From the IMG/VR virus record IMGVR_UViG_3300017758_004847: a stretch of 64,000 nt of DNA. One strand, written 5' to 3'. The position numbers and the translations under genes were made by a program. A model generated the notes under the pieces. The model saw only the letters and a list, made by a program, of their open reading frames with translations. It ran no database searches and was not told the origin of the DNA. The DNA is from an uncultured virus (IMG/VR IMGVR_UViG_3300017758_004847). Its lineage: Duplodnaviria > Heunggongvirae > Uroviricota > Caudoviricetes. How positions within the stretch are numbered: the stretch's first letter is position 1; each line of letters starts with the position of its first letter. Shown piece by piece: positions 2,315-53,655 of this stretch.

Positions 2315-2350
2315 ATGTCTATAGAAATACATAAAATATATATAAAAGTC

Positions 2351-2520: not shown

Positions 2521-2521
2521 C

Positions 2522-3166: not shown

Positions 3167-3167
3167 T

Positions 3168-3803: not shown

Positions 3804-3804
3804 A

Positions 3805-3966: not shown

Positions 3967-3968
3967 AT

Positions 3969-4584: not shown

Positions 4585-4587
4585 TTA

Positions 4588-8326: not shown

Positions 8327-9577
8327 TTATCTGAATATTGTTATATGACCATTCACTTCAATAATCTCAGGGGAGTTAGATCTCCGACCTTTGATTTGGT
8401 AAAAGTAAACTCCGTCTTGTGCATAATAAGGCCCACCATTTATACTACCATCCCAATAAGGATAAGAATCAAATTCTTCACCATACCCACTATAAATTAG
8501 GTCACCCCACCTATTAAATATTTTAAACTCTACACCAACCCAACATTCCAATTCATAAATTAGTTTCCACACATCATTCATTCCATCGTTGTTTGGTGTA
8601 AAGGTATTAGGTACATAAATGCTACCTTCACCTAAACAAGGATAACCTGGATCATCTTCACATTCTAATCCACTTTCACAATCAATCCAAATCTCTTGCA
8701 AAATATACTCTGTTATAGTGTCTGTAACATATATGTAGTTATCTATCACTACCTCAACATAAGTCGTATCAAATATGAAATTATCTATATAAAGTGTATC
8801 GTATAGATTTATATACTGAGTAATTGTATCGTAAATGTAAACATTTTCGTATTCTGTTGTAAAAATGGTATCAGTAATAAAAACCTCAACATCAACATAG
8901 GTCGTGTCGAATATGTAATTATCTATATACAATGTATCGGTAATATATTCTACGACTGTATCAGGTTCACATTCATCGTAACAAACCATTAATCTATTAT
9001 CATTTATATTAATATCAGGATATAATTGAGTTTGATTAAAACTATTTCCCGCACTCCAACCATCATCAGGAAAATCATCATAACCCGCTGTTTGTGATAA
9101 GTTAATCTGCCATATCACAACTTCCCAACAATATCCCTCAATAGGGGTAGATAAAATACACTCCCAAGCAAATGGTGGATTTATATTAATAGTTGCGGTC
9201 GTACCACTTTCCCATCCACCCCAATTTGTGACATTTGAATATGACCAACCTGGATGAAACGTTGTTGATGTACAATCTGTATTTTCTCCTAAGTCTTCTC
9301 CAGTGATTTCATTTATATAATGAATACCAAAAACAAGATGAGATACATTTTCATTATTATTTACAGAAGTAGATCCATTATCAACGCAAGTATTTCCATC
9401 TGATTGAGTGAATTCATTACATCCACAATTTTCTGCATTAATAAATTCAACCACAAAGGAATGATCATCCGCTGTTGTTGCAGGTGGTGTTTGACTTACG
9501 AGTGTTATATCACAAGTCTGTGCCCATATGAGTGTAGACATAAGAAGGCACTTCAAAGTTATGAAGTGTTTTAACAT
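8327..9577 (-). CDS. Secreted protein with T9SS type-B C-terminal domain (gliding-motility-associated CTD)
   Basis: Signal peptide ending WAQ; IYVPNTFTPNNDGMNDVW..IFNRWGDLIY..WDG..DGVYFY..GHITIFR. Confidence 0.88.
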   Translation of the reverse strand: MLKHFITLKCLLMSTLIWAQTCDITLVSQTPPATTADDHSFVVEFINAENCGCNEFTQSDGNTCVDNGSTSVNNNENVSHLVFGIHYINEITGEDLGENTDCTSTTFHPGWSYSNVTNWGGWESGTTATININPPFAWECILSTPIEGYCWEVVIWQINLSQTAGYDDFPDDGWSAGNSFNQTQLYPDININDNRLMVCYDECEPDTVVEYITDTLYIDNYIFDTTYVDVEVFITDTIFTTEYENVYIYDTITQYINLYDTLYIDNFIFDTTYVEVVIDNYIYVTDTITEYILQEIWIDCESGLECEDDPGYPCLGEGSIYVPNTFTPNNDGMNDVWKLIYELECWVGVEFKIFNRWGDLIYSGYGEEFDSYPYWDGSINGGPYYAQDGVYFYQIKGRRSNSPEIIEVNGHITIFR

Positions 9578-10383: not shown

Positions 10384-11358
10384 TTATTTCCATTTAAAAC
10401 CACAACCCATATGTCCGAATTCTGCAGATCTACCGAACACTGGTTTTTTAAGTTCGAGGAATTCAATTATTCCTTTGGGTGATAGATCATAATCGTTATT
10501 ATCTGTGATATTAATTATATGTCCATCACAATTTGCGGTTGCCTGTAGTGGTTGATCGTACCCTATCGCATAAGCTAAGGTTACTGTGCATTCATATCCT
10601 CCGTACAACTTTAAGTAGTCGACAGCAATTCTCCTTGCCATATATGCGGCAGATCTATCAACCTTTGTAGAGTCCTTACCACTGAACGCCCCACCACCAA
10701 GAGGTACTCTTGGACCATAATTGTCAACTGCAAGTTTTCTACCTGTAACCCCTGCGTCTGCAGTAAAACCACCAATATTCCAATCCCCCGCGGGATTACA
10801 ATGTAATGATTGTATGGTATATTCGGGATATCTTTCCTCAAAGAATAAAACAACTAACTCTTCTAATTTATCTTTAGGTGCATTTTGAAATGAACATACG
10901 ACTCGTACCTTAAGGTCGTCTATGGTAACTTGAGTTTTACCATCATATGGGAAGAACCCATATACAAGTTTGTTTAGTTCACGTGATAAATAATATTCTT
11001 GAGGTAACTTTTGTTCATTGTCGTTACATGCATACCCGATCATAATTCCTTGGTCACCCGCACCACCCGTGTCTACACCTTGTGCAATTTCAGGAGATTG
11101 AGTATTAATATTAACGATAACATTAATTGTATCATCAGTGGTTATATCATGAACTACCTTTACAATGTTTTCTCTTGTTACTACTGCATTTGAAGTAATC
11201 TCACCCGTTATGTAAACCTCACCTAATCCACCACAAGTTTCTACCGCACATCTTGAGTTCGGGTCTTGTGATAAGTGAAGATCTAAAATCGCATCAGAAA
11301 TACGATCACACATTTTATCTGGATGCATCGGAGATACACATTCCGCAGTTCTCATCAT
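10384..11358 (-). CDS. metK: S-adenosylmethionine synthetase
   Basis: HPDKMCDRISD, GAGDQG, DAGVTGRK, GGGAFSGKD.TKVDRSAAY. Confidence 0.97.
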   Translation of the reverse strand: MMRTAECVSPMHPDKMCDRISDAILDLHLSQDPNSRCAVETCGGLGEVYITGEITSNAVVTRENIVKVVHDITTDDTINVIVNINTQSPEIAQGVDTGGAGDQGIMIGYACNDNEQKLPQEYYLSRELNKLVYGFFPYDGKTQVTIDDLKVRVVCSFQNAPKDKLEELVVLFFEERYPEYTIQSLHCNPAGDWNIGGFTADAGVTGRKLAVDNYGPRVPLGGGAFSGKDSTKVDRSAAYMARRIAVDYLKLYGGYECTVTLAYAIGYDQPLQATANCDGHIINITDNNDYDLSPKGIIEFLELKKPVFGRSAEFGHMGCGFKWK

Positions 11359-26865: not shown

Positions 26866-27273
26866 CTAAGAAACTTTGGTCCATTTTTCTGTAGAGTCTA
26901 GCTTGAATGACCCAATAAAGTTTTGTTCCCACTCGTCAGGACCAATTAATGATAGGAAAACAACATCCTTCTTGTTAGTATAAAGATGATATGTATGTCC
27001 TATTACGGGGATGAATGAGTATGTTGATTTATATATGACCTGATTCCAATTGAATTCGTTAACTAATTTATTATACTCTTCTCTTAACTCTTCAAATTTA
27101 GTCTTGATCTGATTATTCACTTTACTAACCTGTTGATTTTTCCAACCAACAGTGTCGTCTAATTTTATTGCGGGGGCACCAACATTACTTGCATAAGGTA
27201 GTTTGTGTCCAACCCAACCTTCTTTCTCGTCCCAAGCTACATTGTCGGGGTATTTTTGTTTTTCTTTACTCAT
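26866..27273 (-). CDS. DUF2452-like protein
   Basis: LPY.SNVGAPAI, F.PVIG..YHLY, LSLI.P.EW. Confidence 0.7.
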   Translation of the reverse strand: MSKEKQKYPDNVAWDEKEGWVGHKLPYASNVGAPAIKLDDTVGWKNQQVSKVNNQIKTKFEELREEYNKLVNEFNWNQVIYKSTYSFIPVIGHTYHLYTNKKDVVFLSLIGPDEWEQNFIGSFKLDSTEKWTKVS

Positions 27274-27857
27274 AAACCTAAATCTTTTCTAATATCATTT
27301 TTAACTGTGGTTAAGTACTTGGTTCTCTTCTTGTGAGTAACAAAAGGAACAGACCAAAATTGTTTTGTTTTAAACCATCTACTGAGTTTCCACCCAAAAA
27401 CAAAGGTAAAAACACCTAACACTAATCTCAACTTAACTGAATTTAAGTACAAAATTTGTACAGGTAATGAAGGTGCACCATGTGTAATATAAGTCCTAAC
27501 TTTTTTATCTTTTAGGAATGGTTTGGGATACGCATATAATTTAGTGATATTTACAAATTTATATGCAAAACCAGGTACAAATACTTCGTCAAAAAATATT
27601 TCCATTCTTGGTGTTAATCTAAACCACCATACTGGTGAGATAAAATAAATGTGGGTTGACCAAGTTACCAATTCCTGATACTTTTTAATTAGGTCGGTTC
27701 TTGGTCTGTCAAATGAATCCCTATATAAATCAATCACTCTATATGATTGTTTATGTTTTCTCATCTGTCTTGTTGCAGTTTTATATATACCGTTCCAACA
27801 AAATGATTTTTTATTGGGATGACCTACTACAATTAAAATTTTCTTTTGTTTTTTCAT
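27270..27857 (-). CDS. NAD(P)H-dependent oxidoreductase, flavodoxin-like fold
   Basis: ILIVVGHP..KSF, IDLY, PVWW....P......D.VF.PGFAY. Confidence 0.85.
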   Translation of the reverse strand: MKKQKKILIVVGHPNKKSFCWNGIYKTATRQMRKHKQSYRVIDLYRDSFDRPRTDLIKKYQELVTWSTHIYFISPVWWFRLTPRMEIFFDEVFVPGFAYKFVNITKLYAYPKPFLKDKKVRTYITHGAPSLPVQILYLNSVKLRLVLGVFTFVFGWKLSRWFKTKQFWSVPFVTHKKRTKYLTTVKNDIRKDLGL

Positions 27858-28183
27858 AGACTGAAACTCTCACCACAACCACATGTTCTATTTGCGTTGG
27901 GGTTTATCCATTCAAACCCTTTACCATTTAAACCTCCTTGGAAGTCTAACGTGGTACCAGCTATGTAAAGTATGGATTGTTTATTGATTACTATTTTCAC
28001 TACTTCAAGATCTACGACTTTATCAGTCTCTTCAATCTTATCATCGAAATCCATTAGATATTGTAAACCACTACAACCACCTCCCTTTACACCAACTCTC
28101 AAATGATGGGTATCAGGTGTTAAACCCTTTTCCATCATTAATGCGATTACCTTTTCAAGTGCTATTTCAGTTATATTAACCAT
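27854..28183 (-). CDS. iscA: A-type Fe-S carrier protein (IscA/HesB)
   Basis: LRVGVKGGGCSGL.Y, NPNA.RTCGCGESF. Confidence 0.93.
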   Translation of the reverse strand: MVNITEIALEKVIALMMEKGLTPDTHHLRVGVKGGGCSGLQYLMDFDDKIEETDKVVDLEVVKIVINKQSILYIAGTTLDFQGGLNGKGFEWINPNANRTCGCGESFSL

Positions 28184-28240: not shown

Positions 28241-29665
28241 TTAAATCAAATCGTATTTTTCTTTTACCCAAGAAATGTTTTTTTGTTTTTTGAATCTCTT
28301 TGTTAGTGTGTCCACCACTATTTTAAACTCATCGGGTATTGGTGAGTTGGCCTTACCATATGCCATAGTCATATCACCACTTTTATATTGAACATTAATC
28401 CATTTCTTACCCTTTCTAAGAGAGACGTATACTGATACCGCACCATGATTAAATTGTTGTCCCATGCAATTTTTCATAATGTGACCCTCAACTTTAAACT
28501 CTTCTTCAGTACTTAATATTTTTGGTTTATATACTTCATCACCAATTAAAATGTCTTGTTCAATGTACTTGATAAAATCTTTTTTGAAAACATATCTAAC
28601 TCTGTATCCTCGTGATATGTATTTTTTTACCGATAACCATCGTTCTTCTAATTCTCTAAATTGTAGATCATTAGTAGCGGTATATCGTAAATCAATTCCT
28701 TTCTTTTCTAAAGATTGTCTGAGTGACAGGAGATTATATAAACTATCAACAAAAGAATCGGTCATCATGTTCTCTTTCTCCCAATTAATGATAGTCATCA
28801 TCATATTCTTTTTCTCAGTATCATTTTTTAGGAGGTGGGTTTTATTACCCCTTGGTGGTCTGTAACAATGGAGGTGCCAATCAACTTTGTTTAAGTAATC
28901 AATAAAATTGTCACCAAATAATTTACAAATGTAGTTAAGTGACTTAATGATGATCGGCAGACCCTCCGTGTTATTATTTAATGTACTTATGAATTGTTTT
29001 GTTTTAATACCATACCCATCAAGAACTGAAGGTACGAACTTATAATCATTTAATTTTAGATATTTTAGTTTAGGGTAATCAGTTTGAATATCTAAGTAAA
29101 TTAAGTCATGACCTTTAATATTTTTTTTATCTAAATGATAATCAACAAGTAAATCAAATAATGGATCTATCTCTGTTTTGTGAAAGTGCATTTTATTTCT
29201 AAGATAGTCGTCTTTTATCCTTGGTTGGATAAGGTCCTTTAATATTATAAATGCTTGGTCAACTTTATCACTATATCTTTTACCCCATTTACCAGACCCT
29301 CTTTTGTTTCCTTTGTAGAACGCCTCAGTTGTAAATTCTGCTAGTCTATCAAATCTATTTTTACTGATATTGGGTTTTTTCATTCCCCTGATATCACCAA
29401 AGAAACCTTTAGTCACAGTACTATTCCAAACTCTATAGTTTGCTTTCTTAAGATCAATTGTTAGTTCTGTAGACATCTCGACTTCTCTAACAAGAGTGTA
29501 TTCGGGAATGTCATTATCCCCATCTTTAGGTCTTTTATAGGAGTAATCGTAATCTTGTTTGATTTGAATTGTTTCCTCCCAAAAATAGATTTCTAAGGAG
29601 ACCCTCTCAATCTGTTTACCTTTATCTGTCTTTTTATTTTGTTCGTAACTAAATAACTGTTCCAT
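28241..29665 (-). CDS. PcfJ-like domain protein
   Basis: C-terminal EG..MKNCM...Y.SLR........Q......YGKAN. Confidence 0.65.
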   Translation of the reverse strand: MEQLFSYEQNKKTDKGKQIERVSLEIYFWEETIQIKQDYDYSYKRPKDGDNDIPEYTLVREVEMSTELTIDLKKANYRVWNSTVTKGFFGDIRGMKKPNISKNRFDRLAEFTTEAFYKGNKRGSGKWGKRYSDKVDQAFIILKDLIQPRIKDDYLRNKMHFHKTEIDPLFDLLVDYHLDKKNIKGHDLIYLDIQTDYPKLKYLKLNDYKFVPSVLDGYGIKTKQFISTLNNNTEGLPIIIKSLNYICKLFGDNFIDYLNKVDWHLHCYRPPRGNKTHLLKNDTEKKNMMMTIINWEKENMMTDSFVDSLYNLLSLRQSLEKKGIDLRYTATNDLQFRELEERWLSVKKYISRGYRVRYVFKKDFIKYIEQDILIGDEVYKPKILSTEEEFKVEGHIMKNCMGQQFNHGAVSVYVSLRKGKKWINVQYKSGDMTMAYGKANSPIPDEFKIVVDTLTKRFKKQKNISWVKEKYDLI

Positions 29666-29720: not shown

Positions 29721-29858
29721 TTAAGAGTGTGCGGACTTGAAGAACTGAATGAACTTAGATATGGTTGATTCCATTTTTATCTTATCCGTTTCAGATACCT
29801 GTGTGACTGGTCTACTAACTCTAATTGGTATTTTTTTATAAATCTTTGGTGCTGACAT
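29721..29858 (-). CDS. Small protein (45 aa, not in ORF track) directly after the twin-Hint gene
   Basis: MSAPKIYKKIPIRVSRPVTQVSETDKIKMESTISKFIQFFKSAHS; ATG 3 nt after the upstream stop. Confidence 0.6.
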   Translation of the reverse strand: MSAPKIYKKIPIRVSRPVTQVSETDKIKMESTISKFIQFFKSAHS

Positions 29859-29861
29859 ATC

Positions 29862-32189
29862 TTACTCTAGTTTATTATGTACGAGAATCCCTTCTGCGTA
29901 AAAATTATTATTATCTTCTACATGTATGATGTAGGTTTGAACGGGAAACAGTTTAGGTGTGATTATTTTTTCAATATCCAAAATTTCTAATTCTCTACCG
30001 TCTTGGTGGAAGAGAATATCACCAACCTCTATTTGTACTGCGTCCCTATCATCTCCTAATTCATACAAAAGATTTGTTTTCGATGGTAAGTATGATGCAA
30101 TACCCTTGTCCTTAACATAATATGGGTGATCTTCTGTTGATGTTAATGTTATGTCGTCGGATATAACATATTTTACAAGATCATCGTGTAAAGGATCATT
30201 TTTACCGATTACTAGTTTATTTTCTTGTGTCTTTGTCTCTTCATTAAATGATAAAACTTCATCTCCAATATCAAGGGTTTCTATGGGAACAAGTGTTCCG
30301 TCACCCATTGTTACTTTAGTCCCCTTAACAAAACAGTCGGATGGAATCATAAATCTAAAACGGTTGTGAGTAATTATATTTAGATTCATTGTGTGACTAT
30401 CACCGAGTACATATGTATCGTTATCCTCCACGTTTATACCATAGAGTTTACTACTTGGTTCATCTAAGAAACAGAATTCCACTGAAGTGATATCAACTAA
30501 GTTACCGTCATTACTAAACAACTTGTGTAATGATGGATTCAAATCCATTGCTGGTTCAAATTTTGTGATGTTAGTACTTGTGTTGTATGCTATATATCTT
30601 TTTCCAATACCTGTGTAAATTTTATCACCGTTACTTAGTGCAATTTCCGTAACCACGTTATTCTTAGCGTCTTCAACTTTAATATCGACAATAGATGCTG
30701 TGGAATCAGACTCGGTATATGTTAAGGTCGAACCAGTGATTTGCCAATTATCAGTGTTTGTTTCGTCTAAATCTAAACCTTCAATAGTTTTAGATTTTAC
30801 TACATCATTCACTTCAAGTTGACTAAGACTTTTACTTGTACCATCAGACATAAGTACGGTGTGTGTTCCATATAATGATTCGGATTTGTATGGTATGATA
30901 GAATTTGTTGCAAACTCATAATAGTGTCTTGGATTTATAATATTCAAACATTGGTTGTCTTTGACTAATGAAGTCTTACCTATATTAACCTTACCAAGTT
31001 GATCACCTAAGTCAAAAAACAATCTTGTGGTTTCGTTGTTTAAATTATAGACAGTGAAATTAACCACATACTTTTGTCTTGTTGTAGTAATACTAATAAC
31101 TTCATTTACATTTGTCCAAGGATCATGATCTAAACCTAAACCAACTATTATTGTTCTTTCTACATCACTCCAAGCGTCAAACTCTATTTTGTAGTGGGAC
31201 CCATCTTGAACATTGACTTTCTGTGTTAAGTTAACCTCGTGTTTTTCACCAACAACAGTTACATCCGCCGAATAATATGTGTCACCATCTACAGTTTCTA
31301 CGTTTACCTCGTTGGGGTCATCCACACCTTCTGTCCATGAAGTACTACCACCACTAAAATCACCATTGTTAAGTAATTCGACATCACCGATAATATCAAT
31401 CTCTGTCGGTATTTCAGTGTATGATGAATTTTGTAATGTGGCAAGGTTTAATACATCAAGTTCACTACCGTATATGATACTGTAGGATCTAAATGATACT
31501 ACTCTATTTTGTTCATCTAAACTATCATTACCAAAATGATATTGTTCTATAATCTCTTGTCCGTGAACAACACCATTTGTTAATCCCTCGACTCTATTTG
31601 CATTTGTATCATTTATACTACCAATCTTACCAAATTTGTGAGTTTGTCCCGATCCTTTTTCTACTTGTTTTATTGCAACATCAGGGATATTAGTAGGTCT
31701 ATTATCTAAAAAGGTATCTTCAATTGTATTGTGATGTACGTTATTTTCATCGGTATATGAAAATGATATAATGTCGGAAGATGAATCATTTGTTTTAAAT
31801 AAATTTAATGTGTTAAATCTATTTTTTATATAACTTGAATCAAATATTGCATTTTCGTCGTAGACTAATCTTAATATAAAATTACTACCACTTTCACTAA
31901 TCGCAGTTGGGTAAATTGAATTGGGTTGTTCCCTATGTAAATTTACTTGTAGAGATGGTAATGTATCCTGATAAGTATCCACAATTCTTTTGACTATATG
32001 GTTATGTATGTCTTTGTAAATAATATCTAAAGTCGTCAGTGAATTTTCATTAAGGATTTGATATAAACCAGAGAAATCTAATAGTGCGGAGCTTGAAGAT
32101 CCAGCAGCGGTATCTGTGTTAAATTCAATTAACCTTAATTCACCTAATTCATCTTTGATAAAGTCACCACTAAAAAGAGTCCCTTTCAT
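29862..32189 (-). CDS. Multidomain protein: ATP-grasp-like N-terminus, CBM4/9-like domain, two tandem Hint domains
   Basis: DF......LRLIEFNT; ELLNNGDF..W..LTQ..YKIEFDA; SLYGT.TVLMSDG...IITHN; CFVKGTKVTMGDG..TEDHP..NFYAEGILVHN. Confidence 0.75.
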   Translation of the reverse strand: MKGTLFSGDFIKDELGELRLIEFNTDTAAGSSSSALLDFSGLYQILNENSLTTLDIIYKDIHNHIVKRIVDTYQDTLPSLQVNLHREQPNSIYPTAISESGSNFILRLVYDENAIFDSSYIKNRFNTLNLFKTNDSSSDIISFSYTDENNVHHNTIEDTFLDNRPTNIPDVAIKQVEKGSGQTHKFGKIGSINDTNANRVEGLTNGVVHGQEIIEQYHFGNDSLDEQNRVVSFRSYSIIYGSELDVLNLATLQNSSYTEIPTEIDIIGDVELLNNGDFSGGSTSWTEGVDDPNEVNVETVDGDTYYSADVTVVGEKHEVNLTQKVNVQDGSHYKIEFDAWSDVERTIIVGLGLDHDPWTNVNEVISITTTRQKYVVNFTVYNLNNETTRLFFDLGDQLGKVNIGKTSLVKDNQCLNIINPRHYYEFATNSIIPYKSESLYGTHTVLMSDGTSKSLSQLEVNDVVKSKTIEGLDLDETNTDNWQITGSTLTYTESDSTASIVDIKVEDAKNNVVTEIALSNGDKIYTGIGKRYIAYNTSTNITKFEPAMDLNPSLHKLFSNDGNLVDITSVEFCFLDEPSSKLYGINVEDNDTYVLGDSHTMNLNIITHNRFRFMIPSDCFVKGTKVTMGDGTLVPIETLDIGDEVLSFNEETKTQENKLVIGKNDPLHDDLVKYVISDDITLTSTEDHPYYVKDKGIASYLPSKTNLLYELGDDRDAVQIEVGDILFHQDGRELEILDIEKIITPKLFPVQTYIIHVEDNNNFYAEGILVHNKLE

Positions 32190-32291: not shown

Positions 32292-32816
32292 ATGAGAAAC
32301 ATTTTAATCGTTGGTATACCAAGAAGTGGTACTACAAATTTACTTAAAAGTTTATCTTTATTTTACAAATATAAAGCGGTGTTCGAACCTTCTTATGAAG
32401 AACTTAAAGAAATGAATATTAACAAAAAAGTAGTAAAGGTTATTGCAGGCCCATGGTTTCCAAACAAATATCTCATAGAACAGTCAAAAAGGTTCGACGG
32501 TATTATATTTATCAGTAGAAGAGATTTAAAGTCATCGGCGGAATCTTTGTACGTCATGAGGACATACAATGATAGAATTGTCAATAGACAATGGTCTGAT
32601 GAATTTATACCTGAAAATATTAAGGAATACAACGAACAAGTACTTTCGGATAAAATGTTACATGAGTTCGCAAAGACTCTTTCAATAGATGTAAACTATT
32701 ATGAAGACGTTTACACCACAAAAAAATTAAACGATGATAGGTTTGGTCTACATCCCGAACCTTTACACGATAGGAATAAGTTAAGGAGGATAAAAAATCA
32801 AAAAACTTTTATATGA
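32292..32816 (+). CDS. Sulfotransferase-family protein
   Basis: IVGIPRSGTT (5'-PSB-like), FEP, R......S, YYED. Confidence 0.75.
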   Translation: MRNILIVGIPRSGTTNLLKSLSLFYKYKAVFEPSYEELKEMNINKKVVKVIAGPWFPNKYLIEQSKRFDGIIFISRRDLKSSAESLYVMRTYNDRIVNRQWSDEFIPENIKEYNEQVLSDKMLHEFAKTLSIDVNYYEDVYTTKKLNDDRFGLHPEPLHDRNKLRRIKNQKTFI

Positions 32817-33352
32817 GTTGGAGTTACAAACACATAGGTAATTATAAGACTTCAAATATTTTAGAGTTCGTAAATAAATTAAGTGATGCCGATTGGTCTC
32901 TTTGGACATTCAAACAAGATTCATATGCAAAAGTTCATCATAACACAAATACAATACCTGTGTTAGTTGATGAAGAGTACGAATTAAGAAGGGGTCAAAA
33001 AACAATTTATTACAAACTGTTAGAGAGTGAAATTAAGGGTATCGAAGAGGTGATAAAAACCACTTTAGGTGATGGTACCGTCCTTCGAATTGAAATTGCA
33101 AAACTTAAATCTAGTACTGTAATTCCTGAACATGTGGATACGGGTGTTTCTTTAATAGGTAACAGTAGAATACATCTACCAATCGTAACTAATAATGAAT
33201 GTATTTTTAAAGTGAATGGTGTGGAAAAGTTTATTCCTGTTGGTGAGTTGTGGGAAATTAATAACGAGTCTTTACATGGTGTTACAAATCTTGGGGGAGA
33301 TAGAATACATATGATAATTGATTTTAAGAAGTCCGCAAGGGTACTATTTTAA
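32813..33352 (+). CDS. Aspartyl/asparaginyl beta-hydroxylase-like 2OG oxygenase
   Basis: IPEHVD, RIHLPIVTN, GELWEINN..LHGVTN.G.DRIHMIID. Confidence 0.88.
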   Translation: MSWSYKHIGNYKTSNILEFVNKLSDADWSLWTFKQDSYAKVHHNTNTIPVLVDEEYELRRGQKTIYYKLLESEIKGIEEVIKTTLGDGTVLRIEIAKLKSSTVIPEHVDTGVSLIGNSRIHLPIVTNNECIFKVNGVEKFIPVGELWEINNESLHGVTNLGGDRIHMIIDFKKSARVLF

Positions 33353-33588
33353 AATCCCATATGACTCACAACTATTTGACCTAAATTATGTGATGGTTGG
33401 TAGTATTTAAAATCGTGTCTTTCACATATTTCAATTACACCGTCTCTCATAGGTTTACTATTTCCCGTAATGACCGTAACATCGAATGAACCTTTCAAAG
33501 ACCTCATAAGTAGTTCATCTTCTACTAACACAAACGCATCTTCCCTATACATTCCGTGTAGATCTATTTCTTTATTTTGCCAACCCAT
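33349..33588 (-). CDS. Smr-domain protein
   Basis: IDLHG...EDA, VITG.S, N.G. Confidence 0.8.
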   Translation of the reverse strand: MGWQNKEIDLHGMYREDAFVLVEDELLMRSLKGSFDVTVITGNSKPMRDGVIEICERHDFKYYQPSHNLGQIVVSHMGF

Positions 33589-33865
33589 TTATTATTCTGT
33601 TTTGCACTTCTACTGAGTAGTTCATAAGAAAATCGAACACCGCCCTTGTAATTTCAGGGTCAACATCATTTTCAATAGATTGTTGTTTTATTTTTTCAAA
33701 TATATCCTCTCTCCTTTTTGGACACATCTCATGGGTATCATACTTCTTTTTGAGTCTACCGAAATCCTTTGTAAGATTAATTCTTGAAATAATAACATCC
33801 ATGATAATCTCGTCAGTAATATCGATTAAATCACGTAGTTCTTCTATTTCTTTTTCGTAGCTCAT
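33572..33865 (-). CDS. Chorismate mutase (AroQ-type)
   Basis: IEELR..ID..DE.I...I..R.......G.LK.........RRE. Confidence 0.75.
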   Translation of the reverse strand: MSYEKEIEELRDLIDITDEIIMDVIISRINLTKDFGRLKKKYDTHEMCPKRREDIFEKIKQQSIENDVDPEITRAVFDFLMNYSVEVQNRIINGLAK

Positions 33866-33991
33866 CCTCAGTCTTTTCACTTAAACTTTGTTGAAGTCTT
33901 TGTATTTCAAATTTTATTTCTTGCGTCTGTGGACGAATTTGTTTAAGTTCCAAAATTTTGTCTACTATTTCTCTATCAATACCTTTCATAA

Positions 33992-34873
33992 TCAATTACT
34001 TAATTCACCTTTTATTCTTGCGTGGGACTCATACCCAATAATTTTATAATCAAATTCACCATTTAATATATTAACATTGGATAATTCGATAGTTGGTAAC
34101 TTGTAAGGATCTCTTGAGAGTTGTTCCTTACATTGTTCTATGTGATTCTTATAAATATGAACGTCACCCAAATTACAAATAAGATCACCAGGTTTTAAAT
34201 TGGTCTCTTCACATAATAAAAGTAATAGAGTCGCATATGAAGTTATATTAAAAGGTAACCCTAAGAAGGTATCGACACTTCTCTGATTCCACATTAAAGA
34301 TAGTTTACCGTTATTTACGTAACATTGGAACCCGTAATGACATGGAGGTAATTTCATATAAATAAGATCTGAAACATTCCAAGCATTCACCATCAACCTT
34401 CTACTTGTAGGGTCATTTTTAATATTATAAATCAAATCTTTAATTTGGTCAACTCCGTTGAAGTCTCTCCACTGTTTTCCATAGATAAATCCAAGGTTAC
34501 CCCATTGTTTTGAGAAGTCATCATCCTCTAATATTTTTTGTTCGAATTCTTTGACACCATATTCAGGATCTTCTAAGTCCCAATGATGTACTCTTTCGTA
34601 AACACTATACGCATCACCTGTCCATATATGACAATTGTTTTGTAACAAGTATCTTAAATCGGTCCTACCTTTTAAGAACCATTTAAGTTCAGTCATGATT
34701 GATTTAATTGCCATTTTTTTAGTTGTTAGGATTGGAAATCCCTCTGACATATCATGACGTAGTTGTCTTCCGAATACTGATATTGTACCAGTTCCTGTTC
34801 TGTCTTCTTTTTCTTCACCGTTTTTTAAAATGTCGGTGAGTAGGTTTTGATAAACTAAATCTATTTTGTTCAT
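33992..34873 (-). CDS. thyA: Thymidylate synthase
   Basis: DRTGTGT, FPILTTKK, SRRL..AWN, LPPCH, QRSVD.FLGLPFN, HIYKNH; start revised to MNKID. Confidence 0.97.
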   Translation of the reverse strand: MNKIDLVYQNLLTDILKNGEEKEDRTGTGTISVFGRQLRHDMSEGFPILTTKKMAIKSIMTELKWFLKGRTDLRYLLQNNCHIWTGDAYSVYERVHHWDLEDPEYGVKEFEQKILEDDDFSKQWGNLGFIYGKQWRDFNGVDQIKDLIYNIKNDPTSRRLMVNAWNVSDLIYMKLPPCHYGFQCYVNNGKLSLMWNQRSVDTFLGLPFNITSYATLLLLLCEETNLKPGDLICNLGDVHIYKNHIEQCKEQLSRDPYKLPTIELSNVNILNGEFDYKIIGYESHARIKGELSN

Positions 34874-35217
34874 TTCCAAAATATTTGTATTGATATTAGA
34901 ATAAAACAAAGACCTAAACTAAGTAATGTTTTAATATCCAACCCCTCTTTAAAATATATGTTAACAAAAATTGCATATTGAATCATTCCGATACTAAACC
35001 CAATAAACCTTGCGGGCCACAATAACCCATCCATTGCATCTACAGTGTGTTTTGTTCCCCATATAAAAAAGAATGATATTATCATCCCTGATGCCGCGAC
35101 TAATATTTCATTTTCCTTAAAACTCTTCCAAATAAATTGTCCGTTAAGTTGATAGAAAACTAAAATGTGTCCGATTAAAAAATATAGGAGTCCTAAAGAT
35201 AAGTCTGTTACTTTCAT
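34870..35217 (-). CDS. Four-TM membrane protein (DMT-like)
   Basis: Four hydrophobic helices. Confidence 0.65.
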   Translation of the reverse strand: MKVTDLSLGLLYFLIGHILVFYQLNGQFIWKSFKENEILVAASGMIISFFFIWGTKHTVDAMDGLLWPARFIGFSIGMIQYAIFVNIYFKEGLDIKTLLSLGLCFILISIQIFWK

Positions 35218-42552: not shown

Positions 42553-45500
42553 TTAGAAATTACTTGAGTCGAATACTCTGTATCTAATTTTTATAGAGAT
42601 TGAATTAAAACCAGAACCTATTGTACCACTTGTTCTGTGAATTGTTGTCGCTAAGTTATTCCCGTAAGTTCTTCCATTTATAGGAACATCTCTTTCGTAT
42701 ATTACATCACCTCCAGCAGAACTAGCCTGTTGCCAGTTCGAATACGGAAGTTTAGAGATTGTCACTGCTCCTGGTGACCCTGGTTGTCTTAATTCTATAG
42801 CAGAAGCACCACTATGTCTGAAGTTATTCTTTATTAAATATGAAGTTTCATATATAACCACAAATTTTCCACTACCAGGTGCTGATATTATAGTCGTTCC
42901 GTTACCCCCAAATCCATTATTAATTTGAGCTGCTGTATAGGTAACTGTTGTTTCTTGGTATGGGTTAGATGCCGATGAAGTTATATATCCCGCTTGTGAA
43001 TGGTCACCCCATCCATATGCGGTATCCCAATTAGACTTATTATATCCTGTTGTTGTAACTATACCTAACGTATTAATAAAATTAGTAGGTGAGTAGTATC
43101 TAATATATCCATCTCCTGACGCGTATATTCTACTGATTGAATTCGTTCCATTATCTCCACTTGTTGTGTTAATCCATCCCGCTTGAATATATCCATTAAC
43201 ATCAGTACGAACAACTTTGTTTGCTTCATTATTTCTACCTGTATGTAAATCTATTCCATCTAATAAATTTGAATCTGCTGCTTTACCTGAAGTTGATAGA
43301 TAACCTCCACTTGCATGATTTCCCCATCCATATGCGGTATCCCAATTAGATGAGTTATTTGTCAGGTTACCTGAATCCCATATCTTTTTATTAGTACCCC
43401 AAGCGGAATCACTCGTTGCTGTTCTTCTCCATAAATGATCACCAGAGAATATTAATTGTTCTTGTCTGTGACTTGCGTCAAAACTTGCCCACTTAGATAC
43501 TGTTAGTAATGAGTGCCATCCGTCACCTCCAACACCCGTATCAGATGTGTTTTGGAAATCCCATTGTGCGTATCTATCATCATAGTATGATGGTGCTCTC
43601 GCAGATCCTCTACTATCTGTAATGTAGTTTCTATCATTAGTATCTGTTAGTGTACCCGTATTAGAAGTATAACCCGCTACTGAGTGATCTCCCCACCCAT
43701 ACGCTGTGTTCCATTGTGATGAATTACCATGGGATGTTGTTGTTATAGTACCATCTGTCCATATACCCGCTCCAATGGCAGATACAGTAGTACCATTCCT
43801 CATTATTAACATTTGATGATCTAAACCTGATTTAGATTGTCCACCAACATTTGTATGTGTGAACGATATACCGTATAAATTACCAGATGTTGAACCATCA
43901 TCTGAAAGATTATAAGCGGTACCCATAGACCAAACATGTTGGTATTTCGTTGAGGAATATAAACCATAAACACCTCGTCCATAATTGTTGGCGACTAATG
44001 CATGTTGAGTACCCATTGTAATAGTACCCGTAAACGTATCCGCCGTATCACTTCTTAAGAATTGAGTTGAATCTAACGTATCTAATGTAGTGGCATTACC
44101 ACCATCTGGTGATGTTATATATCCTGCTACTGAGTGGTCGCCCCATCCATATGCAGTATTCCAATTTGTAGAACTGTCAGTAAAATTACCACTATGATAA
44201 ACTTTATTTTGGGTAGTTTGACTACCAGCGTATATTTCACCCGTAGTTATTATACCACCATTTACAGTTAAATCTAAATCAACTTTGGCTCTTTCACCAA
44301 AACTTGACCAATTAGAAACGTCACCAGGATCGGATGCATCAGCAACCCAATTTTTTAAAACCCAACCAGCCGTTTGAGCATTACCACCTACAATGGCAGC
44401 ATATACTGAGTTAGAATCCGCATCTACATATACCTGTAAAGCAGCCCCCGCGTAAGTATCATGATCTTTTATTCTTATATATCTAAAGTTTGTACCCGAG
44501 TACCTTGAATTGGCTGTAACAGTTATGTCGTTTGATGTGTCTGTACCAAAATGATGTGATGCACTAAATAGAACAGATTGATGATCGCTTGATGCTGTAT
44601 CCCATATTTGAAACTCCCCTAAAGCTCTATCACCTGTGTTAGTGGCAATTGTATACCAACCAACGGCTAAGTTACTTTGACTGAATGAATCTATGTAACC
44701 TCTATCAAAATAGGTTTTCATTTCTGATTCAGTATAATATCTATCGTCGTGATTATGTGATGGTAACGATGTAAGATAACCTCCACTTGCATGATTTCCC
44801 CATCCATATGCGGTATTCCAATTGGATATATTTAATGCACTACCGAAAACATAAGCGGTATTCGTATCACCTTCTAATTGTAATGGATGTGGTGTTTCAT
44901 AACCACCATCTATTGTGTCACTACCATCTCTGTCGGCAAGTACATAGAAATTATTACTATTAACGTGTATGTAAAAATTATCCTCCGATGATGTATCCAT
45001 GAAAGATATAGTTCCATGTGAACCTTCTATAACAAGAGAGGAATTAGAAAACTTTTTAGTTCCAGATATAGATTGGTTACCCGTTAATTTTACCACACTG
45101 TTGTCAGCGGCATAACCTCCACTTGCATGATCCCCCCATCCATATGCGGTATTCCAATTTCCGTCATTATAAGAAGATGCGTTACTATGTATAACCTCAC
45201 TTAGTGTTAAATCTACCCCACTTGTAGCGTCTTTATAACCAATCATAACACCACCATTGTATGGTGCTTGTAATATTAACTTATCAGCGGCATCATTAGA
45301 TACACCAATAACCATAGCCGCAGACTCACCTGTCGTGTTACCATAACCATATGAGTGAAACTGTATAAAACCATAATCAGAAGGATCATTGATATTAGCA
45401 CCATCTTTTTCTGACTCAAAAAATATCCCACTTCTACCTACACTATCACCTTTTAATACTATGTTAGTACCTGCACTTTGATAATAACCCATATCAGTAC

Positions 45501-48500
45501 CGCCAGAGTCTATAGAACCACCTATTGTAAGTGCTCCCGTTGTCGTATCGTTCGCATCACTTCTTAAGTACTTACTTTGAGTTGAACTTGAAGTTAGGTA
45601 CCCCGCTTGTGAATGGTCTCCCCATCCATATGCGGCATCCCAATTAGTTATATCACTCGATGAAATACCTCCCGCTGCCGATGCGGAGAATACAGGATCT
45701 GACTCAGTAAATGAAGTCAAGTATCTTCCATCGATATCTACGGTGAATGTATCTCCACCATTATTTCTTGTAAATGTAATTACACCATTACCACTATTAA
45801 AAGTCGCACCCGTTGTAAACTCATTTGTATCTGTAAATGAACTTATATATCCCGCTTGTGAATGATCTCCCCATCCATATGCGGTATTCCAATTAGATAT
45901 ATTAGTACTTGAAAAGTCACCATCGTGCCAATACTTCTTCCAAGTTTGTTTTGACCCATTAGCGACGGTTCTTATGTACATTCTACCCGCATCACCACCT
46001 GTCATTTGAATGGCCAAGGTATTACTATAATATGATACAGGGTCACCATGTCCAATTCTTAAAGAGGTGTACCAATCTGTAGTAGGATTTAAATCCAGAG
46101 TACTCTCTTGAGAATTCCAATTTTGCATCCCACCACTACCTTCATTTGCGGTAGATCCTAATAAGAATTTATGGTTGTGTGCTGTTTCTGCATATCTACC
46201 ATCAATATCAACAGTATATGTAGCACCACCATTCTTAGTGAATGTAATTATACCGTTACTACTATTGAATGTTGCGCCTGTTGTGTGTAAAACAGTATCA
46301 ACTGCAAAACCTGTAACGTCTACTGAACCTCCGTTTGATTTATTTAATGTTAATGTTTGGTTGGCATCATTGTATGTTCCACCTGTAACATTAATATCTG
46401 TTAGTGTAGAACTAATGTCCACATTAAATGTGTCACCACCATTATTTCTTGTGAAGGTTACTATACCAGTATTACCATCAAAAGTGGCTCCCGTAACAAA
46501 CTCATTGGTGTCCGTAAATGAACTTATATATCCTGCTAGTGAATGATCTCCCCATCCATATGCTGTGTTCCAATTTGTTGAGTTACCACCATCACCATAA
46601 AAAGTGCCTGCATGTACTTGATACCATCTTTTACTTGAAGTACCTAATAATTGATCAGATTGATTATCACCTGAAGGTTGAACACCTCTATTAAATTGTA
46701 TTTTATTATCAGTTTCATTTAAAGTTATCTCACCCCAACCATTACTGGCTGCATTATATAATCTAAAAGATTTACCTGCGTTAACAGCTACAATACCTGC
46801 AAAACGTGTGTTTTGAGATGCGTCTAATCTTATCGCCTCAGTATTGTTTGTTCCAATAGATAATTGTTCAGAACCGCCTGCGGTTCCTATAAAAGTGGTA
46901 GGATTTACTCCACTACCATTTCTTATTATGAAAGAACCTCTAGCACCTGTGTTAGAGTAAAACCTTGCAATAGTTGAATTGTCGGTGTCTGCCCCTTTAA
47001 CATCTAAAGGATGACTTGGAGACCCCATATTATCACCAATTCCTATATTTCCAGCAAAAGTTGCATCGACATCATTAATTGTTAATCTTACAGAGCCACC
47101 AGATACTACAGCAAACGTCTCGTCATCACTAAACCCAAATTTAGTACCAGAATCGCCAGTGTGGTTTATATAATCAGGTATAGTTAAATCACCTGTTAAT
47201 GTGCCACCAGCTAATGGTAGGAATCTTCCATCGATATCAACTGTAAATCCTGCATTACCTGTTCCCACACCTGTTATAACACCTGTTGATGAATTGAATG
47301 TCGCTCCACTTATATAGTCTATGTCATTATCATTTCCACTATCCGTAACTGTTTCTGTAGCCGTGGTTAATCCTGTTACGTGTCCATTACTATCAAGTAA
47401 TATATCTTGAATATATGTTCTTCCACTATTGTTGGAAGAACTTGCTGCAGATATATTGTCATGTTGAGTATATGTTTCAGTGAATGAAGTAAGATATCTT
47501 CCATCTAAGTCTACATTAAAGGTATCACCCCCATTGTTTCTTGTAAACGTAACAACACCATTACTTGTGTTAAATGTTGCTCCCGTTGTAAATTCATTTG
47601 TATTTGTAAATGAACTTATATATCCCGCTTGTGAATGATCTCCCCATCCATATGCCGTCACACCATTTGCAACATCTGTTGTTGTGAAGTCACCTGCATG
47701 ATGTACACGATTACCATTAACTTGTAATCTGTTATTACCTCTTGTAACATTTACAAGACCATTATGATCAATCGATATTGCGGTTTTTGAACCAGTAGCA
47801 TAACTGTCGGTGGTTGCGATGTACATTTTTGTACCATAAGAACCATCAGACTTTACATATATACCCGCTTGTGCACTATTTGCATCAGATGCGTTGAATG
47901 TAATTGCACCACCCGCATGGTCGTTACTAACACTCATTAAATGAATATTACCTTCACCTAAACCTGGTGTGGTTGCATTCCATATATCAGAACCATTAGA
48001 GTGAGTTCTCCTCCCTCTTGCGGTTACAGTTGATAACGTATCGGTTTCACTATAACTTGTTAGATATCCCGCTACTGAATGATCTCCCCATCCATATGCA
48101 GTATCCCAATTTGATATTTTAGTTGTAGTAACTCCAAATGCCGCATGTGCAGTAAATATAGGATCTGACTCAGTAAACGAAGTTAAAAATCTACCATCTA
48201 AATCAACATTGAAAGTGTCGCCACCATTGTTTCTTGTAAATGTAATTTTACCGTCACTTGTGTTGAATGTCGCACCTGTAACAAATTCGTTTGTATCCGT
48301 AAATGAACTTATGTATCCTGCTAGTGAATGATCTCCCCATCCATATGCAGTATCCCAATTCGATATTTTAGTTGTGGTAACACCAAATGCCGCATGAGCA
48401 GTAAATACAGGGTCGGTTTCTGTAAATGATGTTAGGAATCTACCATCTAAGTCTACAGTAAATGTGTCGCCACCATTGTTTCTTGTAAATGTAAGAACAC

Positions 48501-51500
48501 CATTACTTGTGTTAAATGTCACCCCTGTTGTAAATTCGTTCGTATCCGTGAATGAACTTATATAACCCGCCAATGAATGGTCACCCCATCCGTATGCCGT
48601 GTTCCAATTACTATCGTTGTAACCACTTGCGGTTAGTGTCCCTGTAATTTTTGTATTTGATGTTATCTCTAAACCTGAAGTTGCGGTTGGACTTATTCTA
48701 TAGTAATTACCGTTATGTGTAAAGGTTGTGTATTTACCATTATTGGCCTGACTATAGTGGTACATATTCATACCATTACTCGAATCACCTAAATAAAGGT
48801 GTCCTGTTCCGTTAGGATACAGTTTTAAGTTTGTATCTGTAGGTGTTGATATTTGTGTTGTTGTTAGTTCACCTACTGTAATTGTGTTAGAAGTACTTGA
48901 CCCTCTATCGGTTACACTATCTAATGTATCTGTTTCTGTGAATGAGGTTAGGTATCTACCGTCTAAGTCTACCGTGTATGTATCTCCACCATTCTTAGTA
49001 AAAGTAATTATACCGTTACTTGAATTGAAAGTTGCACCTGTTGTGTGAAGTACGGTGTCTACAGCGAACCCATTTACATCGACAGTACTACCATCTGATT
49101 TGGTAAGTGTTAATGTTTGACTACTATCGTCATATGTACCACTTGTGACTGTTACGTCAGATAATGTATCTAACAATGTAACTGTAAAGGTATCACCGTC
49201 ATTTCTTGTGAAGGTTAATACCGCATTACCACTATTAAATGTTGCACCCGTCACAAACTCATCCGTATTTACTACAGATTCAGTTGAAGTAGTTAAACCT
49301 GTGACATGTCCATTATCATCAAGTAATATATCTTGTATGTAAGTTCGACCACTATTGTTAGACGAAGATGCTGCGGATATATCCTCATGTTGAGTATACG
49401 TTTCTGTAAAACTTTTCAAATATCCTTCAACCGAGTGATCACCCCATCCATATGCGGTGTCCCAATTTGATATTTTACCGTTGGTGATTCCTGCTGATGG
49501 AGATGCCATAAATACAGGATCTGATTCAGTAAACGAAGTTAGGAATCGTCCGTCAATGTCAACCGTAAAGATATCACCATCATTTCTTGTGAAGGTTAAT
49601 ATACCATCACTTGTATTAAATGTCGCACCTGTTGTAAATTCATCTGAACTCACTAATGTTTCTGTGGCGGTAGTTATACCAGTAACATGACCATTACCAT
49701 CGAGTAGTATGTCTTGAATATATGTTCTCCCACTATTGTTGGAAGAACTTGCTGCAGATATATTTGGATGTGAAGTAAGGTACCCACCTAACGAATGGTC
49801 ACCCCATCCGTATGCCGTGTTCCAATTGGATCTATCATATCCTGTGATTGATGTAGTTCCATCAAAGAAATTACCTATTTCTGTTTCAGTATAATATCTA
49901 TCATCGTGATTGTGTGATGGTAAAGATGTTAGATAACCACCTAACGAATGATCACCCCATCCATATGCGGTATTCCAATTAGATATATTAGTTGATGTAA
50001 TCCCGTGAGCTACGTGAGCGGTAAACACAGGGTCTGTTTCAGTATAACTTGTTAAGAACCTACCGTCAATATCAACAGTGAAAGTATCACCATCATTTCT
50101 TGTAAACGTAATAACACCATTTGATGTATTAAATGTTGCTCCTGTAGTAAATTCGTCCGTATTAACAACAGATTCACTTGCAGTTGTAATTCCTGTTACG
50201 TGACCATTACCATCTAATAAAATATCTTGTATATATGTTCTTCCACTATTGTTTGAAGAACTCTCTGCATTTATGTTTGGATGTGAGGTTAGGTACCCAC
50301 CTAATGAGTGATCACCCCATCCATATGCGGTGTCCCAATTTGATATTTTAGTTGTGGTAACACCAAATGCTGCATGAGCGGTAAACACAGGATCTGTTTC
50401 TGTGAATGATGTTAGGAATCTACCATCTAAATCAACTGTATATGTATCCCCACCATTCTTAGTAAAAGTAACAACACCATCACTTGTATTAAATGTTGCT
50501 CCTGTAGTATGTAGGACTGTGTCAACTGCAAACCCCGTTATATCTATTGAACCTCCGTTTGATTTATTTAATGTTAACGTTTGACTACTATCGTTATAGG
50601 TACCTCCCGTAACATTTATGTCGGTTAGAGTTGAACTGATATCAAGTGTAAAAGTGTCCCCGTCGTTCCTTACAAATGTAATTATACCACTACTACCATT
50701 AAATGTTGCACCTGTGGTGTATTCATCATTGTACGAAGTTAGATATCCCGCTACTGAATGATCTCCCCATCCATATGCTGTATCCCAATTTGATATTTTA
50801 CCGTTGGTGATTCCTGCAGAAGGGGACGCTCCAAATATAGGATCTGTTTCTGTAAACGAAGTTAAATATCTCCCATCTAAATCAACTGTCCAACTGTTTC
50901 CGTCATTACGTGTTCCTGTAACAACACCATCACTTGAATTAAATGTTGCTCCTGTTGTATAATAATTATTTGTAGCAAAACTACCAGTTTTACTTTCAAT
51001 ATCATCTAATCTATCATCATGTGATCCACTTGTTACTTCTAATGAATCTAATCTGTTCCCATGTTGCAGTAATTTTGTTTTTTGTGATCCAGTTACTGTC
51101 TCTATCAGATCTAATCTATTATTTTGGGATGTATTAGTGGTTTCAAGACTACCAGTTTTAGTTTCTAAAGAACCTACTCTTCCACTTAGAGTTGATCTCT
51201 CACTTGCATTAGATGATGTATAATCATTAAAATCTGTTCTAAGTGTGGTAACATCACTATCAGTTGCGAATGTATCATCAATACTACCCGTAAATAACTC
51301 TATTAAGTCTAATCTACCATCAACTAAATTGTAATTTGTAGTGTTTGTGATATCGATTTGTACAGAACCACTAACAACTGTCTCAGTATTTAATTTGGAT
51401 TTTACCCCACCTAAAAAATGGTTAGATCCCGTTTCAAGTGTTAAACTCCTATTTGTATCAATAGTACCACCACCTATCAAACCTTTACCACTACCAATCG

Positions 51501-53448: not shown

Positions 53449-53655
53449 TTAAATTTTGGTGTGTTTACTACCGATTTTATTCCAAAATCTTTCAAAACCG
53501 AAGTATCCTAATGTTTTAATTACTGTATCGGCACCTCCGATCGCCAAACCAAATTGGAAATTACCACTTATATACCAACCGATACCTATTGTTATTGTGG
53601 TTGCGATAACTCTCCATATGAATGTTTTTATTAGCGTCTCTTTAATTGTTACCAT
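53449..53655 (-). CDS. DUF2061-family membrane protein
   Basis: KT..WR.IAT..T......G.....AIG......K...Y...ER.W. Confidence 0.85.
   Translation of the reverse strand: MVTIKETLIKTFIWRVIATTITIGIGWYISGNFQFGLAIGGADTVIKTLGYFGFERFWNKIGSKHTKI

Follow-up and report, generated by a model that had tools for sequence, protein, structure and literature searches.

What does a virus gain from a protein that ends in two Hint domains placed one behind the other, with only nine residues between them? The question is raised by a minus-strand open reading frame (ORF) at 29862..32189 of a 64,000-nucleotide stretch of DNA (the whole of which is called the window here) from an uncultured virus of the Caudoviricetes, IMG/VR record IMGVR_UViG_3300017758_004847. 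A sequence-only reading of this stretch had proposed that the two Hint domains could excise the intervening nonapeptide, RFRFMIPSD. The answer that we favor is a different one. The gene product is probably a viral ATP-grasp amide ligase that processes itself; its Hint tail would remove itself from the C-terminus, and the 9-mer would be a spacer or a minimal tail. The 775-amino acid (aa) product is built, in this order, of an ATP-grasp head, a carbohydrate-binding module (CBM) of the CBM_4_9 family, a first Hint domain (Hint-1), RFRFMIPSD and a second Hint domain (Hint-2, akin to the type-A bacterial intein-like domains, or BILs), followed by the residues KLE. All five parts were confirmed at the residues given below, and every coordinate and residue of the sequence-only reading for this ORF was reproduced on recheck.

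31404..32189, minus strand: circularly permuted ATP-grasp ligase domain (aa 1-262), a predicted fold that starts with a strand pair carrying D9, D13, R19, E22-x-N24 and D26-T27
31005..31379, minus strand: CBM_4_9 module (aa 271-395; Pfam), between the ligase domain and Hint-1
30903..30929, minus strand: HYYEF-x-TN motif (aa 421-429), which precedes Hint-1 family-wide
30363..30878, minus strand: Hint-1 (aa 438-609), crippled, with Ser438 at position 1, the block-B His missing and a His608-Asn609 end
30336..30362, minus strand: inter-Hint linker RFRFMIPSD (aa 610-618)
29874..30335, minus strand: Hint-2 (aa 619-772), intact and type-A BIL-like, with Cys619, T685/H688, His771-Asn772 and Lys773 at the +1 position
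29865..29873, minus strand: C-terminal tail KLE behind the last Asn
29721..29858, minus strand: 45-aa partner ORF, 3 nt past the stop codon of the ligase gene

The head was assigned by its predicted fold. Its model, computed with 67 homologues, reached a predicted local distance difference test (pLDDT) score of 92.8 and a predicted template modelling (pTM) score of 0.88. The top Foldseek matches were eukaryotic glutathione synthetases, E. coli YgiC/YjfC, GspS, trypanothione synthetase and the E-64 ligase Cp1B (E about 1e-6; query TM-score, TMq, 0.45-0.50), the permuted glutathione (GSH)/glutathionylspermidine (Gsp) synthetase clade taking all top 11 places among the 48,161 chains of the structure search with the head. 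Because the top matches are all of that clade, the model indicates that the head is a circularly permuted ATP-grasp of the glutathione-synthetase/Gsp-synthetase/YgiC type that begins at about YgiC residue 94; the first ~93 residues of YgiC have no counterpart in the head. The sequence-only reading had likened the N-terminal segment to ATP-grasp enzymes and Gsp synthetase, correctly so according to the fold search and to the E22-x-N24 motif, whose residues bind Mg in the solved enzymes. Among 50 family sequences, no exception was seen at D9, D13, E22, N24 and D26 and hardly any at T27; K59, R107, K174, K188 and R234, candidates for the ATP-binding lysines and arginine, are invariant too, and Y110, D117, Y120 and D170 are invariant or nearly so. 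With E. coli K-12 ygiC as the reference, a weak profile-to-sequence alignment (probability 22%, E 9e-4) placed D9, D13, E22-x-N24 and D26-T27 on YgiC residues 101-121.

The module that follows the head is, by family match, of the carbohydrate-binding type. Pfam scored CBM_4_9 on aa 271-395 well above its gathering cut-off (E 2.2e-12, 48 bits vs. 25.9), which bears out the CBM4/9-like module of the sequence-only reading, and the laminarinase CBM in the PDB (1gui, E 2.7e-5) provided second support. An insert of this size is rare (7/300 family proteins, five of these seven in the window's own subclade) and, together with the Ser at position 1 of Hint-1 and the long linker plus KLE tail, sets the window protein apart.

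A recurrent companion of the ligase gene is the small ORF behind it. A homologous ORF of 43-53 aa was found in 40 of 42 viral loci, the other two having none, and in all 59 distinct loci of a sister clade (described below), with residues Y7, K8 and H44 nearly invariant; neither Pfam nor PHROGs had a family for it. When the complex of the whole 775-aa protein and this partner was predicted, the interface score (ipSAE, interaction prediction score from aligned errors) was 0.82, compared to 0.02 for the best of three controls; in calibration, 116 of 157 solved complexes attained this mark, as did 2 of 215 mismatched pairs, a calibration that applies only roughly here because our own alignments were used. 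The complex runs agreed in at least 93% of contacts, with a partner pLDDT of at least 84. Predicted contacts involve residues 8-36, 115-139 and 225-258 of the head on one side and, on the other, residues 421-442, 511-525 and 548-580 of the HYYEF motif and Hint-1 (those in the motif region including 421 and 430). In the model, then, the partner is predicted to clamp the ATP-grasp head to Hint-1.

Hint-1 itself is nearly invisible to sequence libraries, with PT-HINT matching its C-terminal half only (E 0.028). In a profile-profile comparison with hhalign, however, 124 Hint-1 regions aligned to 246 intact Hints of the family over 134 columns (probability 96.9, E 1.7e-10), the alignment revealing an insert of ~23 residues in Hint-1 and the absence of the block-B His. 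By two independent tests, therefore, Hint-1 is a true Hint fold, which settles in favor of the sequence-only reading one of the points that it had named beforehand as places where it might fail. Its description of the domain also held, i.e., the Ser438 start, the missing block-B His and the His608-Asn609 end were all found. Family-wide, the terminal Asn is present in 124/124 sequences and the penultimate His in 111/124, while the position aligned with Cys1 is Gly in 123/124; Ser is confined to the window's subclade, which is represented in this alignment by P0003 (P0001, P0002 and P0004 were dropped by the motif filter). In front of the domain, H422 and N429 of the HYYEF-x-TN motif are invariant, with conservation of 90% or more at E425 and T428. 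That is, Hint-1 lacks the combination of nucleophile and block-B His that active N-terminal Hint chemistry calls for and has, at the sequence level, the terminal His-Asn of C-terminal Asn cleavage. We infer that only the residues for C-terminal cleavage have been retained, with Asn609|Arg610 as the sole predicted cut.

Hint-2, in contrast, is readily recognized by Pfam on aa 619-772 (PT-HINT, E 6.2e-11; also Hom_end_hint and Hint), and its catalytic set is complete: Cys619, T685-E-D-H688 and His771-Asn772, followed by KLE. Hence, the Cys start, TEDH and HN-KLE end that had been described for it stand, with the full residue set now assigned. A class 1 intein would have Cys, Ser or Thr at the +1 position; Hint-2 has Lys773, and relatives have K, R, F, L or Q. 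The arrangement His771-Asn772-Lys773, without a +1 nucleophile, is that of type-A BILs, which are characterized, in PMC4031507, by a C-terminal His-Asn lacking a +1 nucleophile, and whose chemistry, as described there, comprises an N-terminal thioester and a C-terminal Asn cyclisation with cleavage products dominating. That source also describes the attack of a freed amine on the thioester and splicing without a +1 nucleophile (PMC4031507). Consistent with this assignment, the closest matches of Hint-2, in both structure and sequence, are BIL2 and the Clostridium thermocellum BIL. Hint-2 is, by its residues, a type-A BIL-like domain of predicted activity. Among 510 complete intact Hint copies of the family, Cys1 was present in 510, the block-B Thr in 508, the block-B His in 509, the penultimate His in 509 and the Asn in 510, counts to be read with the caveat that the hidden Markov model (HMM) behind them was built from copies picked by their Cys-start pattern. 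Of 280 relatives, 190 have just K past the last Asn, 24 have KL and two have KLE. In five loci (L013, L014, L020, L022 and L024), a stretch of 28-58 aa with a conserved SGLGDN...RQ takes the place of His-Asn-Lys past the first intact Hint; this stretch, which our HMM trimmed off, may be a different Hint C-terminus.

The homologue comparison that the sequence-only reading had called for (a variable peptide between fixed catalytic residues) had this outcome: while the terminal Asn of Hint-1 and the Cys1 and Asn of the intact Hints are fixed, the segment between Hint-1 and the first intact Hint takes 50 forms among 267 relatives. The most common forms are AP (118), no residue at all (44), SP (39), A (8) and NP (6), and the window type occurs in just six proteins (RFRFMIPSD in two, KFLIPQD in two, FFKFLIPFD in one and RFRFLIPSE in one). 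Similarly, 247 of the 249 linkers between intact Hints are 1-11 residues long (the outliers have 26 and 29), with RF (40), R (37), K (19), RA (12), FKYGGGS (12) and strings rich in G, P and T among their forms. In the model of the window protein, aa 609-618 have pLDDT below 50, one of three such stretches, and RFRFMIPSD is thus predicted to be disordered. Because the linker has so many forms and is modelled as disordered, a specific nonapeptide product is not a feature of the family, and RFRFMIPSD as a defined product, which had been the central proposal of the sequence-only reading, is not sustained. The window's clade likewise lacks a peptide, conserved outright or in its framework, between the two cut sites. 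We also considered a diketopiperazine or dipeptide product made from the X-Pro linkers and rejected it, as it does not fit the one-residue and zero-length linkers or the relatives with a different, Peptidase_S74-like end (below).

The architecture is far from unique to the window. Of 7,999 candidates scored in a search with the whole protein, 262 were relatives. The head profile matched 324 cluster representatives (50% identity; E<=0.001) in 1.84 billion proteins, the head opening the protein (residue 1) in nearly all of the 150 representatives listed. IMG/VR gave 111 relatives when searched with an alignment of the window's family and 309 with one of the sister clade. These numbers make the module abundant. 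A single protein as the query for related loci returned nothing, an alignment being needed. Layouts called with our own HMMs on 319 distinct family proteins were head-Hint1-Hint-Hint in 174, head-Hint1-Hint (as in the window) in 65, three intact Hints in 38, head-Hint1 only in 21, head only in 11, head-Hint in seven and odd in three. Relatives come from IMG/VR contigs, one of them a 326-kb record with a reported CheckV completeness of 100%. For cultured phages, comparing P0001 by tblastn with 50,697 phage records brought up only intein-like matches to aa 609-772, in nine Vibrio phages, and P0100 matched 80 of the phage records with no match before query residue 401 among the 25 matches listed. 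That is, no cultured phage with the head was seen in the P0001 search or among the matches listed for P0100. A full-text literature search, to which subscription journals were largely out of reach, found no paper on an ATP-grasp/Hint fusion. The family is large, from uncultured viruses and apparently undescribed.

The genes around the ligase share a feature of their own, namely a hydrophobic C-terminal tag, defined here as an ORF end of the type [LIVFM][ILFV]. For ORFs of at least 90 aa in 50 distinct loci, the tag was found on 197/315 ORFs up to 2 kb from the ligase gene, 103/210 at 2-4 kb, 60/183 at 4-6 kb and 16/61 at 6-8 kb, compared to an internal frequency of 7% for the same dipeptide. 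In the window, 13 of the 58 ORFs are tagged, including all three genes that flank the ligase-partner pair:

32292..32816, plus strand: P-loop protein with tag ...TFI, divergent neighbour with a sub-threshold match to Sulfotransfer_1
32813..33352, plus strand: Asp/Arg beta-hydroxylase-like cupin with tag ...VLF (Pfam Asp_Arg_Hydrox)
28241..29665, minus strand: 474-aa protein with tag ...DLI, downstream of the partner ORF, with no family in Pfam or PHROGs

The neighbour at 32813-33352 had been called Asp/Asn-hydroxylase-like, and Asp_Arg_Hydrox is indeed above cut-off (E 2e-8, 34.7 bits vs. 22.6). The sulfotransferase call for 32292-32816 stood only in part: the P-loop likeness of its N-terminal region was recovered, but the score falls below the Pfam cut-off (E 0.0075, 16 bits vs. 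22). Neighbouring proteins of the sister clade have a similar N-terminal P-loop start, as read by eye from the ORF ends.

Contiguous with the ligase in relatives are genes for carbamoyltransferase, adenosine 5'-phosphosulfate (APS) kinase, many 2-oxoglutarate (2OG) oxygenases resembling prolyl 4-hydroxylase (P4H), radical S-adenosylmethionine (SAM)/SPASM proteins, methyltransferase and GDSL-like proteins. The window has a second tagged cluster at 54.4-62.6 kb, beside APS kinase and carbamoyltransferase. At 53642-54437 and 56935-58599 (minus strand) lie this APS kinase (E 1.3e-22), with a small cytidylyltransferase-like gene beside it, and the carbamoyltransferase; since the same trio stands directly upstream of the ligase gene in relatives L004 and L049, the module is split in two in the window. 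Four further tagged ORFs at 679-5790 (minus strand; ends VVI, SVI, TII and TII) seem to form another, third group of these enzymes. They include a 2OG-Fe(II) oxygenase (5275-5790, phrog_61, E 2.4e-23) and an ORF (1315-1848) whose sole match is a DNA-endonuclease family; a second phrog_61 match (3168-3860, E 3e-6) is on an untagged ORF.

Under the hypothesis that we favor, Hint-2 would form a thioester at Asp618|Cys619 and cut itself away, probably serving as a self-removing C-terminal cap; cyclisation of Asn772 (a cut at Asn772|Lys773) would shed KLE, and cyclisation of Asn609 could release anything left behind Hint-1. The mature enzyme would be the ligase-CBM-Hint-1 piece with its bound partner, and enzymes with the common C-terminal tag would cooperate with it on a peptide-like substrate or one with a C-terminal carboxylate. 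RFRFMIPSD would be the form that a variable spacer or minimal tail takes in this subclade rather than a conserved product. Several observations weigh against this hypothesis. The role of a cap does not, by itself, explain why one to three Hint copies are retained. The linker is not hypervariable within the window's subclade, where F-[LM]-I-P-x-[DE] is kept in 6/6 members at 54-99% overall identity and may have a local role. The ATP-grasp call rests on the fold, for aa 1-270 matched zero Pfam families even at E up to 10, Pfam GSP_synth (PF03738) had no match in the window's head, the head profile had no significant match to the sequences of the PDB (best E 0.11) and the profile alignment to YgiC was, as noted above, weak. 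GSP_synth also had no match in the record of the 326-kb relative, though control genomes matched, and PHROGs had no family for the head. Finally, all support comes from sequence, predicted structures and gene context.

The strongest competitor assigns a purpose to the position behind Asn609 of Hint-1. Under this alternative, the protein is a self-releasing peptide or carrier system, in which the stretch behind the Hint-1 Asn is a ribosomally made cargo carried by the ligase itself, the tagged enzymes, once docked, tailor it, Hint or S74-like caps expose its C-terminus, the ATP-grasp ligates or cyclises it and Asn609 releases it. The window would then represent a reduced version, with RFRFMIPSD as the cargo, or RFRFMIPSD-KLE if Hint-2 splices in the manner of type-A BILs. 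The case for it comes mainly from the sister clade, for which an alignment of 13 proteins gave the 309 IMG/VR relatives and 59 distinct proteins were read. In 56 of these 59, His-Asn is followed by a C-terminal tail of 26-33 aa with a fixed, Trp/Tyr-rich framework of six Cys, in which the intervening residues vary, together with a segment rich in G and P and a K-[LIVA]-type end; in the other three (L082, L083 and L152) the six-Cys peptide stands between the His-Asn of Hint-1 and the Cys1 of an intact Hint, followed by KK. A peptide bracketed by two self-cutting modules, as the sequence-only reading had envisioned, is hence a real layout in those three proteins, whereas the window's clade mostly has AP or nothing at this place. 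Because the sister clade carries six-Cys peptides there, we regard the position behind the Hint-1 Asn as a cargo position, and the window's clade looks like a version with the cargo reduced to a spacer.

Other relatives show variations at the same position. More distant members have short Lys/Pro-rich or Cys-rich tails behind the Hint-1 His-Asn, P0249 ends in His-Asn-Lys, and in a few relatives a Cys-rich stretch is followed by a Peptidase_S74 match below threshold (E 0.0003-0.0065). Such an end would mean that self-cleaving modules of two kinds occur at this position, and it is likewise in keeping with a carrier. In P0267, P0286 and P0305, Hint-1 is followed by such a sub-threshold match (endosialidase chaperone), with a Cys-rich stretch between the two in P0286; P0299 has Hint-1 and a Cys-rich stretch with no Peptidase_S74 match, its S74-type end being presumed from a motif.

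The neighbours of the sister clade fit a carrier as well, being protein- or peptide-type modifiers with the tag on 658 of 868 ORFs (76%); they include a Trp halogenase (E 1e-88), several P4H-like 2OG oxygenases, SET, radical SAM/SPASM and APS kinase proteins, together with DUF6071/DUF6734 proteins, which are present in the window too. At L154:1797-3008 with its neighbours and at L093:8822-9184, a Trp halogenase and a SET protein, both bearing the C-terminal tag, stand beside ligases with Trp/Cys-rich, Lys-ended tails, and a possible role of the sister-clade tail is that of natural substrate of the viral Trp halogenase and SET proteins. Moreover, the enzymes that come closest to the head in structure have peptide C-terminal carboxylates as targets, YgiC and YjfC being termed peptide-spermidine ligases in PMC12568646. 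Against a carrier in the window's clade, a cargo that is AP in 118/267 relatives and nothing in 44 is hard to see as a product, and there is no Cys-rich peptide in the window. Further, modification, docking and release are predicted steps only, and the tags could serve packaging, turnover or assembly instead. On balance, we consider this alternative a possibility worth keeping, with the odds clearly against it. If it were true, large aquatic phages would make tailored peptides in a way that differs from the known ribosomally synthesized and post-translationally modified peptide (RiPP), nonribosomal peptide synthetase (NRPS) and cyclodipeptide pathways, and the union of leader, ligase and release protease in one polypeptide would amount to a new way of making modified peptides. 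The tailoring enzymes recruited via the C-terminal tag would be halogenase, hydroxylases, sulfotransferases, SET and radical SAM proteins, and orphan viral halogenases and prolyl-hydroxylase-like oxygenases would gain natural substrates.

A third explanation denies the intact Hints any role for their host: they would be intein-like passengers in a tolerant C-terminal region, with conserved residues that serve their own survival. Copy numbers of 0 to 3 among relatives are what passengers might show, as are a Lys or Arg at +1 and a last tail of usually a single K, reminiscent of P0249 as an 'empty site' (His-Asn-Lys), and splicing without a +1 nucleophile is on record for type-A BILs in PMC4031507. 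However, a homing endonuclease domain is absent, and the copies behave as old, stable residents. Sibling copies of one protein share just 23-47% identity (median 36%), which rules out recent tandem duplication, and the catalytic residues stay fixed nonetheless. When the 510 copies are placed on a tree, their labels ('last/only' vs. 'first/middle') switch 30 times, compared to a mean of 190 and a minimum of 169 in 200 shuffles, a contrast that owes something to the kinship of the host proteins. Because the array position is stable on the tree, we view the intact Hints as old, selected copies rather than recent duplications. In addition, failure of excision would cost little when only K or KLE follows, yet 510/510 copies keep Cys1 and Asn. 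We therefore consider the passenger explanation very unlikely. The original proposal, in which RFRFMIPSD owes its free N-terminus to Hint-1 and its activated C-terminus to Hint-2 and becomes a free, cyclic or ligated functional product, fares no better and seems to us very improbable: catalytic residues fixed family-wide do face both ends of the linker, the amine attack on the thioester given for type-A BILs in PMC4031507 makes an intramolecular attack conceivable and the linker motif is conserved inside the subclade, but a linker that is usually two residues or none, of the 9-mer type in six proteins only and modelled as disordered makes a poor product, and relatives with S74-like ends cannot form a thioester, so that the one common downstream role, if any, is cleavage, not activation.

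The remainder of the window says something about the presumed virus that carries this system. A 3613-aa ORF at 42553-53394 (minus strand), with coiled-coil-type Pfam matches (DUF7310, DUF16), a short BppL_N baseplate motif and a weak, partial SLT_beta match, is probably a giant fibre or tail protein. The ORF at 8327-9577 (minus strand) carries a sorting domain for type IX secretion (CHU_C, E 1.4e-15), and megablast of 10 kb returned only 45-nt matches, in the thymidylate synthase of Tenacibaculum phages; the two together are hints of a Bacteroidota host. PHROG matches in the window are to auxiliary-gene families, and the auxiliary genes at 10384-11358, 27270-28183 and 33349-34909 include SAM synthetase, flavodoxin-like, Fe-S assembly, chorismate mutase, Smr-domain and thymidylate synthase genes. 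The fibre-like ORF and the PHROG matches, along with the relatives on IMG/VR contigs, suggest that the window is viral.

How, then, does the proposed self-processing ligase compare with known systems? Its head shares the circularly permuted ATP-grasp ligase fold with YgiC/YjfC (peptide-spermidine ligases, for which Pederick et al. 2023 is reportedly the source), the synthetase domain of GspS and eukaryotic glutathione synthetase. Unlike YgiC/YjfC and GspS, however, it has no GSP_synth match, lacks the ~93 N-terminal residues of YgiC, is permanently fused to Hints and has a separate 45-aa partner that is predicted to pack on the back of its first strands. For Hint-2, the nearest known relatives are the type-A BILs, i.e., Tetrahymena BUBL BIL2 (PDB 6y75/6tmm) and the C. 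thermocellum BIL (2lwy); in contrast to these, Hint-2 lies at the very C-terminus and is preceded by a crippled Hint and an ATP-grasp enzyme, and relatives have arrays of 1-3 copies, mostly 1-11 residues apart. For intein biology, the family thus offers hundreds of natural tandem arrays of putative type-A BILs and a natural Hint that, judging from its residues, retains those for Asn chemistry only. Engineered two-intein release or cyclisation designs, which use split or paired inteins, have the same upstream Asn-cleaving and downstream thioester-forming Hints around a short segment; compared to these designs and to classical inteins, the arrangement here is natural, its upstream Hint is N-terminally dead and the segment is not conserved in the window's clade. 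The amino-group carrier systems LysW/ArgX and the RiPP-like scaffold-peptide pathways provide an analogy only, since the putative carrier here would be the tail of the ligase itself, its release would proceed by Hint Asn cyclisation and the tag is on the enzymes, not on the substrate. ATP-grasp ligases, BIL-type Hints and CBMs are each known; their permanent fusion, together with a micro-partner and a tagged enzyme set, makes up a module for which the literature search found no paper.

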